Of a stretch of 64,000 bases of DNA, positions 13,467 through 17,254 are shown piece after piece. This DNA is from an uncultured virus (IMG/VR IMGVR_UViG_3300042467_002820) (Duplodnaviria; Heunggongvirae; Uroviricota; Caudoviricetes), in IMG/VR virus record IMGVR_UViG_3300042467_002820, one strand, 5' to 3'. The notes beneath the pieces are model-generated. The model saw only the letters and a program-made list of their open reading frames with translations, was not told the DNA's origin and did no database searches. The translations under genes were made by a program, and so were the position numbers. The stretch's first letter is position 1. The number at the start of each line of letters is the position of its first letter.

Positions 13467-14357
13467 ATGTCGGATCTCATCTCCAAGTACCTCAGCGACA
13501 TCGCCCGGCACCCGATCCTCTCCCGCGAAGCGCAGCTCCGCCACGCCTACCGCATCCGCGCCTGGGTCGACTACACACCACCCGGTGCCTCCGAGCCCGA
13601 TCGCACCGCCGCTCCCGCTCACGTTGCCCGGCTCGGCAAGCGCTCCCTGGACATCATGGTGCGCACCAATCTGCGGCTCGTTGTCCACCTCGCCAAGCGC
13701 TACCAGAACCGTGGCCTCGAGCTGAGCGACCTCATTCAGGAGGGCAGCCTCGGCCTCATCCGCGGTATCGAGCTCTTCGACCCTACCCGCGGCTACGCCT
13801 TTAGCACTTACAGCTACTGGTGGATTCGTCAGTCGATATCACGCGCGCTCTACAATTCATCCCGCACGATACGGCTACCAATTAACGTACAGGATTTAGC
13901 TACAAAAATACGCCGCACAATGCACACATTAACTGCAGCTTATGGCAGACCTCCCACCCTCGAGGAGCTGAGCACTGAGCTCGACCTCCCCTGTGAGCGC
14001 ATAACCGAGACTTTAGTCAGCTGCACCATCACCGATTGCACGTCTATCGATTCCCTTTGCCAGCTATCGGATACATCCATCCTCGAGGTACTCACTACTG
14101 ACAACCCCACCATCAATGAATCCCCGGACCTAGCGGTTCTATCCACCGAGCGCGAAGAGCTGCTCTACCGAGCACTCGGCACGCTCGATCCAACACAGCA
14201 TCTGATCGTGCAATCACTGTACTTTGAGAAGCGCAGCTTGCATCAGCTATCGGAAGAGCTGAACATATCGCGATATCGCATCTCCGCCATGTACAAAAAA
14301 GCCCTACACAAGCTACGTGTAGAGCTCTCCTACACTTGGGAAGCTTTCGATGCGTAG
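13467..14357 (+). CDS. Sigma70-family (RpoD-like) RNA polymerase sigma factor
   Basis: NLRLVVHLAKRY, DLIQEG..GL...E.FDPTRGY.FSTY.YWWIRQ, region 4 HTH. Confidence 0.92.
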   Translation: MSDLISKYLSDIARHPILSREAQLRHAYRIRAWVDYTPPGASEPDRTAAPAHVARLGKRSLDIMVRTNLRLVVHLAKRYQNRGLELSDLIQEGSLGLIRGIELFDPTRGYAFSTYSYWWIRQSISRALYNSSRTIRLPINVQDLATKIRRTMHTLTAAYGRPPTLEELSTELDLPCERITETLVSCTITDCTSIDSLCQLSDTSILEVLTTDNPTINESPDLAVLSTEREELLYRALGTLDPTQHLIVQSLYFEKRSLHQLSEELNISRYRISAMYKKALHKLRVELSYTWEAFDA

Positions 14358-14999
14358 CTACCAAACAGCTATTTGGTCTACTTCTACTCCTTCTAGCGCA
14401 AACGCGTATTTTCCTGTGTACTTGCACCTATGCATACGCTGATAAATGCTAGAGTAATTTAGCTTTAACTTCTCACATAAACTTTTTGCATTATACAGGA
14501 CGCCTTCGTATCGGTACATAGTCTTAGTAACGTTACCTATAACTACTTCTTTTTCTTTTAGCTTTTTTGTCATTTCGTTTTTTAACCACGTAGGCGACGT
14601 AGGTTCGCGATCTTTCTTCGTTTTAGGCACACCTTTTTCATCGTGTCCATTGTCATCTTGCCATCCGAGTATTAAAGCATCTGTGTCTGTGTGCCTTACA
14701 ACCATGTGGCCCGGGTCTTGACCGTACTTTAAGTAGTACACAATTCGATGAGCATAGAACAGACCATGACCACGCACAGACACAAGCCATTTTGCTCCAG
14801 ATTTACTACCTGCGGGTTTGCCAACTTTTGCCCTGCTATTTTTACTAACTACTTTCCACACGAGACCGGAAGGTGAGTCGCCGCACACTGCAAACAGCTC
14901 TTTGACCACGGGAGGGATGGGCCTTGGGCTGCCTTTCTCGTTGAACGCGTAAGCAACGTCGGTCAGCGGTAAGCACAGCTGGTACGTCTGGTTGGGCAT
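14358..14999 (-). CDS. HNH-like endonuclease (possibly degenerate)
   Basis: SGLVWK...GKPAG...YAHRIVYYL..G.DP...VVRH; AT-rich; canonical HNH core shortened. Confidence 0.55.
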   Translation of the reverse strand: MPNQTYQLCLPLTDVAYAFNEKGSPRPIPPVVKELFAVCGDSPSGLVWKVVSKNSRAKVGKPAGSKSGAKWLVSVRGHGLFYAHRIVYYLKYGQDPGHMVVRHTDTDALILGWQDDNGHDEKGVPKTKKDREPTSPTWLKNEMTKKLKEKEVVIGNVTKTMYRYEGVLYNAKSLCEKLKLNYSSIYQRMHRCKYTGKYAFALEGVEVDQIAVW

Positions 15000-15088
15000 G
15001 GCAGGAGCTCAGAACCCCTTGATTATACCCCATACAAAATTTATTCATATACATTTTTTCTAGGCCAGGCCGAGATGTCTGCACCCTT

Positions 15089-15180
15089 ACCCCAGTCTCA
15101 CTGCGACGCAAGGCTGGACTCAACTTGCGACATCGTGAGACTCAAGCCCCTCAGGTGCGACGCATGAGACTCACTGGGGT
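15089..15180. repeat. Operator-like repeat cluster
   Basis: TGAGACTCA at 15136 and 15165, AGTCTCA at 15094, TGCGAC at 15102/15126/15156, flanked by ACCCCAGT/ACTGGGGT. Confidence 0.6.
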
Positions 15181-15183
15181 GGC

Positions 15184-15212
15184 TTGACAGCCGCTCGGCC
15201 CTGTGCCAGACT
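15184..15212 (+). promoter_or_regulatory. Early promoter P1
   Basis: TTGACA-17-CAGACT with extended TG. Confidence 0.75.
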
Positions 15213-15276
15213 GAGCTCACGCGCGCACATCATGCGCGTTTTCGTCTTCCTTGGCAAGCCCGCTACGGCGGGTTGC

Positions 15277-15305
15277 TTGACAGGATCCCGAACCTGTGCC
15301 ATCCT
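15277..15305 (+). promoter_or_regulatory. Early promoter P2
   Basis: TTGACA-17-CATCCT with extended TG. Confidence 0.75.
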
Positions 15306-15395
15306 TCATGGCATCGGAGCACAGCCGCCCCGCGGAGCCTAGGCCACAGGCCAGCTCCCCGCGGCTGCGCGCCGATACCGGCTCCGGCCGGTTGC

Positions 15396-15425
15396 TTGAC
15401 AGATCGGCACCGGGTGTGCCACACT
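15396..15425 (+). promoter_or_regulatory. Early promoter P3
   Basis: TTGACA-18-CACACT with extended TG. Confidence 0.75.
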
Positions 15426-15431
15426 TCTCTC

Positions 15432-15950
15432 AGTTCGAAACCACCGATGCGTTAAACGCAGTGCGCAGCCGATAAAGCGCGGCCGGCCGGGCGGATCCCG
15501 GAGCTATAGCAGCAGTGCGCCCAAACTGACTGGGCGCTAGCTCTTGCACCTCACGGACGGCCTGCTCGGATCACACCGAGCACGAGGACCGTCGCCGAGA
15601 TACCCGAACGCCAGAACGATGGGCGATAGAGGGTGAGGCGACCAGTACCCGATGGCTGGGGGCAAGTAGGCGAACGCGGAACCTCCTGCAGGAGGGCGCA
15701 CTGCATGTGTCTTTACCGATCCCGCTGCTGCAGGGGGATCAACGCTGCCCCCGACAGGGGTCCCAGCGGGTGCGCCGGCCCCTTAACGCCCGGTCTGCAG
15801 ATACGCCCATAGGGTAGCCCGCCGCTCCGGCTTCACTAGGACGGCCAAGCCCTGGCAAACGGCTCTGCCAGGCACAAACCATCTCCCCCAGAAGTTCCCC
15901 CTGGCGCACTGCGTCCGGGGGTCTTTTGGCTGAGGTGCTTTGCACCTCGC
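15432..15950 (+). ncRNA. Putative large structured RNA / leader
   Basis: No credible ORF; more than 10 helices including perfect 11-bp long-range pairs 15456-15466/15904-15914 and 15512-15522/15694-15704. Confidence 0.55.
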
Positions 15951-15970
15951 ATCCACAAGCTGTGACCAGC

Positions 15971-16189
15971 ATGCGTTTCAATTCCCGCCGGGCCAACTGC
16001 CCCGGCTACCTGGAGTTCATCTGGGTGGAAAAGTCCCTCCCCGAGGGCGTCAACCCCCAGGCCATCGCCCTCATCACCGATACCAACGACGGCCGCTTCC
16101 ACGGCATGTACGGCCTGCACACCGTGGCCGGCTCCACCGTGGCCGCCGTCAAGGCGGAACTGTTCGCCCTCATCGAGGCCGGCCAATGA
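15971..16189 (+). CDS. Early hypothetical protein
   Basis: ATG within 20-bp repeat; phage-typical C-ending codons. Confidence 0.6.
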   Translation: MRFNSRRANCPGYLEFIWVEKSLPEGVNPQAIALITDTNDGRFHGMYGLHTVAGSTVAAVKAELFALIEAGQ

Positions 16190-16260
16190 TCACCGAGCAC
16201 GCCACCTTCCACATTGAAGAAGTGTGCCCCGAGGACGCTTTCAACGCTTTCTGACCCGCC

Positions 16261-16464
16261 ATGCAAACCCACTTCCGGGAAGTCGCCTTCCCTCCCGTGA
16301 CCGCCGAGCAGCTCGCCTCGGTCGGCATCGACCGCACCGACCTCTACTGGTCGGCCACTTTCCGCTGCTGGCGCTTCTGCGGCGCCACCGCCGCGGCTTC
16401 CCCGTACTTCACCACCGGCCAAATCCTCCACGAGCTTGGCCTCACCCCCGACCCCCGCGCCTGA
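16261..16464 (+). CDS. Early hypothetical protein
   Basis: Codon usage and operon position. Confidence 0.6.
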   Translation: MQTHFREVAFPPVTAEQLASVGIDRTDLYWSATFRCWRFCGATAAASPYFTTGQILHELGLTPDPRA

Positions 16465-16543
16465 CGCTCCCCCGGAGCTCTACCCCTTTTGTGGGCGAGC
16501 TCCCTGGGCGCCTCGCCCCTTTCCTTCACAAGCTGTGACCAGC

Positions 16544-17254
16544 ATGACCAACCCCAACGGACGGGTCCTCTACGAGGGTCCGTCGATGCTTGATGGCGCG
16601 CCCATCGTCGTCATTGCCACCGGCTTCGCCGAGCGCTCCGCCAACGACAAGACCGGCGGCATGCTGCAGACCTGGATCCTCCGCGCCGACATCCCCCCAC
16701 ACCACGCCTTCAAGTCCCCCGAGGGCGCCTCTGTCTGCGGCGACTGCCCGCACCGCCTCAACCGCACCTGCTACGTCCTCTGGTACCAGGCGCCGCTTGC
16801 TGTCTGGAACTGCTGGCACCACGGCGCCGGCTACGCCCCGGCCACCCCGGCCGACTTCGACGGCTTCGACCTGCGCCTCGGCTCCGCCGGTGACCCGGCC
16901 GCCGTCCCCAGCTGGATCTGGGAGCCGATCCTCCCCCGAGTCCGCAAGCGCACCGGCTATACCCACCAGTGGCGCCGCGCTGTCGGCTCCTGGCTCCGCG
17001 GCGTGGTGCAGGCGTCCTGCGACTCCCTGCAAGACCTCACCGATGCCCGCGCCGCCGGCTGGCGCACCTTCACCGTGCTGCCACTCGGCGCCCCCGACCC
17101 CACCGGCACCATCCACTGCGCCGCCTCCACCGAGCGCGGTAACAAAACCAACTGCGCCACCTGCGGCCTCTGCGACGGTGCCTCCGCCGACGTCGCCATC
17201 TGGGCCCACGGCTCCCGCGCCGCCCACGTCCAACCCACCCCCGCCCTCGCATGA
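16544..17254 (+). CDS. Cys-rich conserved phage protein (gp88-like, possibly Fe-S binding)
   Basis: LYEGPS.LDGAPIVVIATG...KTG.MLQTWIL, CGDCPH..CY, LRLG..GDP, TGYTHQW, C..CGLC. Confidence 0.65.
   Translation: MTNPNGRVLYEGPSMLDGAPIVVIATGFAERSANDKTGGMLQTWILRADIPPHHAFKSPEGASVCGDCPHRLNRTCYVLWYQAPLAVWNCWHHGAGYAPATPADFDGFDLRLGSAGDPAAVPSWIWEPILPRVRKRTGYTHQWRRAVGSWLRGVVQASCDSLQDLTDARAAGWRTFTVLPLGAPDPTGTIHCAASTERGNKTNCATCGLCDGASADVAIWAHGSRAAHVQPTPALA

Follow-up and report, generated by a model that had tools for sequence, protein, structure and literature searches.

The DNA analyzed here is a 64,000-nt stretch (the window) covering the greater part of the genome of a siphovirus known from an uncultured source (IMG/VR record IMGVR_UViG_3300042467_002820; ∼60% G+C), a freshwater phage belonging to a clade of uncultured freshwater siphoviruses. 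We focused on positions 15432 to 15950, which a preliminary description, made from the sequence alone, had flagged as a highly structured RNA of about 500 nt. The flagged region sits within a gene-free interval of ∼970 bp (15000 to 15970), 3′ of three tandem σ70-type promoters and 5′ of the first early open reading frame (ORF), whose ATG is at 15971. It is non-coding and specifies a genuine structured RNA, and comparison with relatives shows directly that this leader RNA is modular, with a 5′ leader, a swappable middle (the cassette, which is of type A in the source phage), and a near-invariant 3′ end. On balance, we favor the view that it is a non-coding, modular early leader RNA, terminated or cleaved at a long 3′ hairpin, referred to here as the rod. 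The features of the locus are given below; z scores compare folding energies with those of shuffled sequences, and L numbers denote the loci of relatives.

15184 to 15212, + strand: promoter P1, read from the sequence (−35 TTGACA at 15184-89, 17-nt spacer, TG at 15204-05, −10 CAGACT at 15207-12).
15219 to 15248, + strand: hairpin ACGCGCG-CACATCA-TGCGCGT followed by TTTTCGTCTT, terminator-like in a scan (fold z = −2.68).
15277 to 15305, + strand: promoter P2, from the sequence and repeat families D2 and D3 (−35 TTGACA at 15277-82, 17-nt spacer, −10 CATCCT at 15300-05).
15318 to 15392, + strand: long hairpin separating P2 from P3 (−44.2 kcal/mol; z = −3.62; equaled by 0 of 200 shuffles).
15396 to 15425, + strand: promoter P3 (−35 TTGACA at 15396-401, 18-nt spacer, TG at 15417-18, −10 CACACT at 15420-25).
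15447 to 15455, + strand: two-codon mini-ORF ATG CGT TAA, conserved in leaders.
15463 to 15503, + strand: 5′ frame, common to cassette type C, with hairpin P2h (15487-91/15497-501; 2 of 5 pairs compensatory).
15504 to 15768, + strand: central domain of cassette type A, defined by per-helix counts and invariant columns.
15769 to 15850, + strand: 3′ frame, shared with type C; its small 3′ hairpins vary among relatives.
15774 to 15794, + strand: hairpin in the 3′ frame (15774-78/15790-94) with the conserved loop CCCCTTAACG; one pair changes from G-C to A-U in 5 of 14 sequences, and the helix is among the best supported.
15851 to 15872, + strand: hairpin CCTGGCA-AACGGCTC-TGCCAGG (15851-57/15866-72) with conserved GGCTCTGC; compensatory changes place it among the best supported.
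15880 to 15937, + strand: the rod, a near-invariant hairpin with loop ACT (z = −4.22); its helices, from an alignment of the 3′ module, are 15880-85/15932-37, 15888-94/15923-29, 15897-901/15917-21, and 15903-07/15911-15.
15932 to 15948, + strand: alternative hairpin GAGGTGC-TTT-GCACCTC (7 pairs, 95% paired, 2 compensatory), present in the minimum free energy fold of 15846 to 15950.
15954 to 15973, + strand: box CACAAGCTGTGACCAGC, then the ATG of the first early ORF (repeat family D1).
15971 to 16189, + strand: first early ORF.

Six-frame translation gave at least two stop codons per frame in each of 14 homologues (the source phage and 13 distinct relatives), bearing out the earlier statement that the region holds no credible ORF. 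No ORF kept in every member examined was seen in any cassette class. As a separate observation, both members of the rare type F (L079 and L095) carry an ORF of 131 to 136 amino acids, starting with ATG, in their middle, and type F may therefore be protein-coding rather than RNA. The hallmarks of tRNA, tmRNA, RNase P, and introns, described earlier as missing, are indeed missing from the region: ARAGORN predicted no tRNA or tmRNA genes, and a scan of the window with Rfam 15 at gathering thresholds returned no matches. With E values of up to 10 (4,227 models), the interval 14900 to 16100 gave no real match, the chance one being to HIV_GSL3 (14995 to 15071, − strand, 20.9 bits versus a threshold of 42), and 11 relatives' loci spanning all cassette types gave none at E values of up to 1. 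A likeness of AACCCGGCTTA in type B to RNase P was rejected; this sequence is actually a covarying hairpin with no Rfam match. A “distant” blastn search with 15000 to 16000 against 50,697 phage records matched nothing, and our literature search found no description of this leader element. A catalogue of candidate structured viral RNAs from IMG/VR contigs (Fremin, Bhatt, and Kyrpides 2023; PMC10690425) shares its data source and covariation evidence with this work and includes terminators and cis-regulatory leaders. Six contig identifiers of this leader family are absent from the catalogue's six supplementary files that were searched, and the leader may already be listed in it.

To describe the core of the source phage, we used an alignment (A4) of 14 distinct type-A sequences, on which 90 pairs in 15 helices were curated by hand. 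Manual curation was preferred because RNAalifold, run on a 12-sequence alignment, wrongly paired 15791 with 15870, whereas the alignment columns show the pairs 15777-15791 and 15853-15870. The central domain contains the following helices.

15512-20/15696-704, + strand: long-range helix, 3 of 9 pairs compensatory, among the best supported.
15543-47/15662-66, + strand: helix, among the best supported.
15563-69/15576-82, + strand: hairpin.
15592-96/15637-41, + strand: helix, among the best supported.
15682-86/15691-95, + strand: helix.
15718-23/15735-40, + strand: helix, 4 of 6 pairs compensatory, among the best supported.
15743-47/15764-68, + strand: helix, among the best supported.
15749-52/15757-60, + strand: helix.

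Standard pairs fill 97.0% of the 1,242 paired cells of this structure. Compensatory change was found in 27 of the 90 pairs, compared to 10.4 ± 1.8 in 500 shuffles, none of which scored as high, while six slid controls gave 1 to 7 pairs with changes on both sides. The helices numbered 2, 3, 6, and 8 in the curated structure have 3 to 4 such pairs each. Among other candidate pairings, CCAG/CTGG near 15642-58 failed at the coordinates tested, and GCGC 15477-80/GTGC 15770-73 and CCTCA 15549-53/TGGGG 15657-61 are invariant and thus uninformative. The type-A core is also conserved in sequence: in 10 of 10 sequence pairs, its similarity exceeds that of 4-fold sites in the neighboring gene (0.71 to 0.97 versus 0.52 to 0.85), a comparison that a mosaic history could blur, and in 9 of the 10, conservation is higher outside the modeled helices than at paired positions. 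Long unpaired blocks of the central domain, such as ACTGACTGGGCGCTAGCT and GGCGAACGCGGAACC, are invariant. This argues that selection acts on both sequence and pairing. The earlier proposal of a new large structured phage non-coding RNA is therefore upheld, by covariation, by conservation above neutral sites, and by the lack of an Rfam match.

The individual helices of that proposal fared unevenly, with about half of them withstanding the comparison. The 11-nt perfect inverted repeats 15456-66/15904-14 and 15512-22/15694-704 exist as described, as do the two occurrences each of GCAGTGCGC and its complement; these four copies in the region compare with seven of the 9-mer in the whole window, versus 2.25 ± 1.45 in shuffles (0 of 100 reach seven). 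Compensatory change in the 14 homologues supports 15512-20/15696-704, TGCTCGG/CCGAGCA, and CCTGGCA/TGCCAGG, and GAGGTGC/GCACCTC is supported in the same way. The terminator-like stem with TCTTTT is likewise present, with compensatory support from a 15-sequence alignment of the 3′ module. The headline long-range pairing, on the other hand, did not hold up: five variants of the 5′ arm of 15456-66/15904-14 keep 5 to 10 of 11 pairs, and the partner shows no matching change. GGCCGGC/GCCGGCC is mismatched in most relatives, its variable G/A covarying with the local hairpin 15774-78/15790-94 instead, and each arm of CCCGCTG/CAGCGGG has a better, covarying partner elsewhere. In divergent members, CCTCAC/GTGAGG falls to 3 to 4 of 6 pairs (4 of 14 sequences) and GACGG/CCGTC to 2 to 4 of 5 pairs (7 of 14). 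The terminator “loop,” taken earlier as the partner of 15456-66, is not open but folds into a 5-bp tip helix capped by an ACU triloop. As for the four GCAGTGCGC copies, sites 2 and 3 pair with each other in a genuine helix, site 4 pairs with itself at the tip of the rod, and site 1 is a lineage-specific coincidence.

G-U pairs far outnumber A-C combinations in the paired cells of the curated structure (69 versus 7), showing that the RNA corresponds to the + strand, the orientation of the promoters. Folding energy alone would settle nothing, given that the entire region is modestly below shuffles on the + strand (z = −1.87; 3 of 100 as good) and more clearly so on the − strand (z = −3.03). The expectation of a fold better than that of shuffled sequences is clearly borne out by the 3′ 65 to 105 nt (z = −3.3 to −4.2) and only modestly by the region as a whole. 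The strand bias also bears on the idea of an element acting as DNA, either as four CGCA(C/G)TGCG operators for a dimeric protein or with the 3′ block as a transcript-primed origin similar to ColE1 RNA II. Four near-palindrome copies within 460 bp, a 3′ block that is near-invariant at the DNA level, the family-A polymerase and primase-helicase encoded by the phage, and an RNA of ∼500 nt with strong promoters and a conserved end site are consistent with this idea. However, sites 2 and 3 diverge and yet stay mutually complementary (e.g., in L060), unlike operators, and site 1 is lost in most relatives. Moreover, the G-U excess reflects selection on one RNA strand, and the cumulative GC skew runs straight across 15 to 16 kb with no turn. 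We regard a DNA-level role as highly improbable.

Relatives were collected by searching viral contigs with the neighboring 236-amino-acid protein, a member of PHROG 2554, which yielded 52 loci. By blastn, the whole region is kept in a subset of these loci (92%, 89%, 84%, and 73% identity), while conservation of the last ∼110 nt (15854 to 15965) extends to numerous further phages at 88 to 93% identity, a level far exceeding that of the flanking genes. An exact pattern derived from the 3′ block occurs in 47 viral contigs, 20 metagenome contigs, and 1 contig of a metagenome-assembled genome (MAG), with 41 distinct sequences. Between the common promoters and the common 3′ module, the 33 distinct viral sequences carry six middles that blastn does not link to each other, and metagenomes contain a seventh class. 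Pooled across collections, with duplicates between collections kept, 68 loci are distributed over types A (26), B (13), E (11), C (10), D (2), F (2), and G (1), with 3 unassignable. A type-A profile can be aligned with type C over the full length (E = 1e-15), but the two types truly share only the outer frame (15463 to 15503 and 15769 onward), the central 265 nt being replaced, and type E shares with type A only the short motifs GGGCGCTAG, AAGTAGG, and GCGAACGCGRAACC. The middle is replaced wholesale among phages in which the promoters and the terminator, and often also the first ORF, are unchanged. Every examined phage with these promoters has a long non-coding body. In the more distant phage L007, the same three promoters, mini-ORF, and box plus ATG accompany a non-coding body of ∼800 nt related to type B and a different terminator-like hairpin, which appears to be a functional analogue, unrelated in sequence, of the rod and terminator. 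One assembled contig (L003/L059/L134) starts exactly at the equivalent of 15854, where the variable middle gives way to the 3′ module; the assembly probably broke here at a recombination boundary.

Given that the middles are exchanged as blocks, the variable core could be seen as a passenger, i.e., a recent functionless insert, with the promoters, the 5′ leader, and the 3′ rod alone being of importance. Types B and E are near-identical within type, as recent spread would give, the whole-region z is only −1.87, and L057 has lost the equivalent of 15816 to 15876, so parts can go; the hairpin 15851-15872 is among them and is thus dispensable. On the other side, the type-A core has diverged to 71 to 74% identity and yet keeps its helices through the 27 compensatory pairs, the long unpaired blocks are retained unchanged, conservation of the core is above that of 4-fold sites in the next gene in all 10 comparisons, and no examined phage has these promoters without a long non-coding body. 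This makes a passenger core unlikely in our view.

The rod is a hairpin of about 29 bp, in which the 23 pairs scored are all formed in 15 of 15 module sequences, with 6 compensatory pairs versus 0.9 ± 0.8 in shuffles. Its inner part (15897 to 15921) has 10 bp with one 1 × 1 internal loop and is followed by TCTTTTGG at 15922-29, for which CCAGAAG is the matching A-tract; together they read as an intrinsic terminator of textbook form, at which termination is predicted. The U-run is invariant in 14 of the 15 sequences. L012 has TTGCTTGG in its place with pairing kept, three A-tract/U-tract helix pairs having been exchanged for other Watson-Crick pairs. Since L012 retains the middle helix of the rod through three compensatory pairs and loses the U-run, the helix itself is under selection, not the terminator alone. 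Viewed as a whole, the rod is an irregular stem of at least about two helical turns between the leader and the first cistron, ending 34 nt before the ATG. L057 keeps it but lacks the GGCTCTGC hairpin and the ACAAAC spacer. In the 3′ module of L054 and L121, GGGCACAAACCATCTCC is duplicated with an inserted hairpin of ∼60 nt just 5′ of the rod.

At the foot of the rod, GAGGUG (15932-37) has two exclusive partners, the outer rod helix and GCACCUC (15942-48), both of which covary, and it is a real two-state element. Because it lies 3′ of the U-run, it cannot gate or prevent termination. Further downstream, the same 20 nt (CACAAGCTGTGACCAGCATG) stand at 15954 to 15973 and at 16527 to 16546, and each copy ends in the start codon of a different early gene. 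A hairpin and a T-rich run lie ahead of both copies; the second such unit spans 16506 to 16546, and its gene is the next conserved one. In relatives, the box stands before unrelated first ORFs, and it contains no Shine-Dalgarno motif.

The succession of promoter, leader, terminator, and genes is the classical layout of an attenuator, and the preliminary description had suggested a switch or antiterminator resembling put of phage HK022, with 15456-66 as the partner of the terminator. More generally, a cis-acting, riboswitch-like core would sense a signal (a metabolite, a protein, a tRNA, or the ribosome) and gate the terminator at 15897-15929. The two exclusive, covarying partners of GAGGUG would be in keeping with this, as would the complementarity of 15512-21 to the 5′ half and tip of the terminator, which amounts to 10 of 10 in all type-A variants (wobbles counted) with the exception of L060 (9 of 10). 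Type-A duplexes with the tip beat most shuffles (0 to 5 of 100 as good), and translation could be coupled to the leader through the mini-ORF. However, the partner at 15456-66 is not conserved, and the tip complementarity shifts its site among type-A members. In types B, D, and G it does not stand out from shuffles (26 to 64 of 100 as good), and the GCAGTGYG motif is confined to types A, C, and D. A motif and duplex-energy search of all cassette types for a kissing or antiterminator partner of the tip gave inconsistent candidates, leaving no cassette-independent partner for it in the other types and no conserved antiterminator pairing, overlapping the terminator stem, that is common across them. 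The two-state element, as noted, is on the wrong side of the U-tract to prevent termination, and no riboswitch or leader family was matched. Furthermore, unrelated sequence takes the place of the supposed sensor in phages that retain the promoters, the terminator, and often the first ORF. The switch in its original form thus finds no support, and we consider gating in cis unlikely.

At the 5′ end, the three TTGACA...CAnnCT units are read as promoters because their hexamers and TG are kept in relatives while the spacers change, which is how promoters evolve. P1 was omitted by a consensus promoter scan because its −10 is too distant from TATAAT. Judging from promoter spacing alone, the last transcription start would be near 15432. 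The spacers (15283 to 15299, 15402 to 15419, and those of relatives) hold short inverted repeats (GGCAC..GTGCC; GAATC..GATTC in relatives), which could be operators that shut off the early promoters. The terminator-like hairpin at 15219 to 15248 with its T-run, a few bases past the presumed P1 start, is kept in types A, B, C, and E and may serve as a 5′ stabilizer, a very short RNA, or an insulator. The 5′-most 39 nt of the leader fold like shuffles (z = 0.35), pointing to an unstructured 5′ end, and the mini-ORF begins ∼15 nt past the presumed leader start. An ATG-NNN-stop is found 20 to 70 nt past the last −10 in 31 of 34 sequences with the promoter pattern. These 34 leaders show at least 12 nine-letter versions, with at least eight kinds of middle codon (CGT, CAT, GAT, ATT, CAC, CGC, AAC, and CTC) and TAA, TGA, or TAG as the stop; TGG in place of the stop was never seen, and some type-B leaders have ATG-TAA or ATG-TGA without a middle codon. 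The mini-ORF has no Shine-Dalgarno sequence. Conserved start and stop codons flanking a variable inner codon are the sequence pattern of a translated mini-ORF, and the one here is probably translated or at least ribosome-bound.

Taken together, these features suggest the following order of events, in which the steps of transcription and processing are predictions. Transcription of the + strand would start at the three tandem host-type promoters, lastly near 15432, and produce a short open 5′ end carrying the two-codon mini-ORF. Next would come a multi-helix core, here of type A within the frame shared with type C, in place of which relatives carry unrelated folded cores. Most polymerases would stop at 15922-29, leaving a stable structured RNA of ∼500 nt. 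In read-through RNA, the full rod (15880 to 15937) would be cut by a double-strand-specific nuclease, as at R0.3 of phage T7, so that the early mRNA would begin with the hairpin 15932-48, ∼22 nt ahead of the ATG and with the box CACAAGCTGTGACCAGC in between. The second hairpin, T-run, box, and ATG unit at 16506 to 16546 fits an operon design with processing hairpins.

Several observations weigh against the picture of a selected leader RNA ended or cut at the rod. The structure was chosen on the alignment on which it was scored, which inflates the percentage paired and, to a lesser degree, the compensatory counts, and the 14 related type-A sequences amount to about 6 lineages. Types B and E contribute little covariation (6 of 181 and 2 of 148 predicted pairs), as they are almost invariant within each type. 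The + strand folding energy is marginal and the − strand does better. A consensus terminator scan omitted the hairpin 15897-15929, because its stem is interrupted, and L012, with no U-run, argues that termination is not universal. Finally, RNA support comes from the contigs of one run, at a depth of 3 to 5 and without transcript ends. In this run, a wastewater metatranscriptome, the intervals 15463-15612, 15622-15842, and 15911-15947 are covered by short contigs from a relative, and none covers 14500-15200 or 16015-16418, though gaps in cover prove nothing. It was the single matching run in our RNA-run search, with 5% of words, and its contigs carry no information on ends, strand, or level. 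We take them as a weak hint of expression, with DNA carry-over being possible.

Among known systems, the early region of coliphage T7 has tandem promoters A1 to A3, an untranslated leader, and the RNase III site R0.3 just before gene 0.3. The locus described here resembles it in its three strong host-type promoters ∼100 nt apart, its long untranslated leader, the irregular long hairpin ∼34 nt before the first start codon, and the second hairpin/start unit before a later early gene. It differs in that the leader is ∼540 nt long, intricately folded, and covarying, with an exchangeable core, and in that the hairpin carries a U-tract, RNase III cleavage being predicted here from the stem only; there is no sequence similarity, as no phage record was matched. 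The nut sites of lambdoid phages, put of HK022, and boxA/boxB of rRNA leaders are antitermination elements of early or rRNA leaders. As in those cases, a conserved RNA element lies in an early leader, upstream of or at a terminator, and its sequence is near-invariant, as expected for the partner of a conserved host machine. GGCTCTGC...ACAAAC, which we take to be loosely similar to boxA, is less boxA-like in the source phage. The boxA-like hairpin is missing from L057, so that not all members have such a motif beside a hairpin, and its absence there together with that of ACAAAC speaks against an essential boxA-like site. In further contrast to nut and put, no N-like gene was identified, and the invariant part includes the terminator itself.

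With the large, ornate RNAs of bacteria and phages in Rfam (GOLLD, ROOL, OLE, HEARO, and raiA), the leader shares a size of ∼500 nt, many helices, conserved junction nucleotides, phage association, and the lack of a known function. Unlike them, it matches no Rfam model, has a fixed position as an operon leader, and is replaced cassette-like by unrelated RNAs. The mini-ORF, in turn, recalls the bar minigenes of phage lambda and the start-stop and two-codon mini-ORFs of bacteria, being an AUG-NNN-stop close behind strong early promoters, with a variable codon between conserved start and stop codons. It differs from bar minigenes by the lack of a Shine-Dalgarno sequence, by translation being predicted only, and by a variable second codon, which makes it unlikely that one particular tRNA is sequestered.

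The block-wise replacement of the core would fit a trans-acting product of an arms race better than a cis sensor. Accordingly worded, the exchangeable cores, of which there are at least six or seven unrelated types downstream of the same three promoters, would be trans-acting RNA effectors and the first and most abundant product of infection, a possibility that we put forward tentatively and consider rather unlikely. By analogy, they would be released by the invariant terminator/processing hairpin and be directed at a target in the host, such as a defense system, a nuclease, RNA polymerase, or the ribosome, and they would be RNA counterparts of first-expressed anti-defense proteins such as T7 Ocr, with an arms race driving their turnover. 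Phage early leaders are usually short and have been studied in a handful of coliphages. In this clade of freshwater siphoviruses, 0.5 to 0.8 kb of folded, selected, non-coding RNA stands ahead of the first genes, and what is new compared to known phage early leaders with a terminator or processing hairpin is this unusually large, modular, selected RNA body. A core acting in trans, if true, would represent a new class of phage RNA effector, and one acting in cis an unusually large, modular leader. Either way, it is a covariation-supported family of ∼500 nt outside Rfam, whose natural domain swaps make its function testable.

Apart from the leader, the window contains the following genes.

3.5 to 10.4 kb, − strand: endolysin, family-A DNA polymerase, and primase-helicase.
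Also on the + strand: SSB-like protein, exonuclease, and deoxynucleoside monophosphate kinase.
13467 to 14357, + strand: σ70-family σ factor.
14358 to 14999, − strand: HNH endonuclease.
From 15971, + strand: many small early ORFs in a long array, then the genes for terminase, portal, capsid, and tail.

The + strand GC skew is negative almost throughout 1 to 64000, including the 3.5- to 10.4-kb segment with − strand genes, and is thus independent of the direction of transcription. The MAG match to the 3′ block is a single 3.4-kb contig binned to a Myxococcota MAG, which we took as no evidence of the host. A cyanobacterial host is likely, because the portal protein has its closest counterparts in Synechococcus phage S-CBS4 (38% identity) and an Aphanizomenon phage. 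The phage σ factor at 13467 to 14357, just 5′ of the early control region, is of the full σ70 type, with regions 1.2, 2, 3, and 4.

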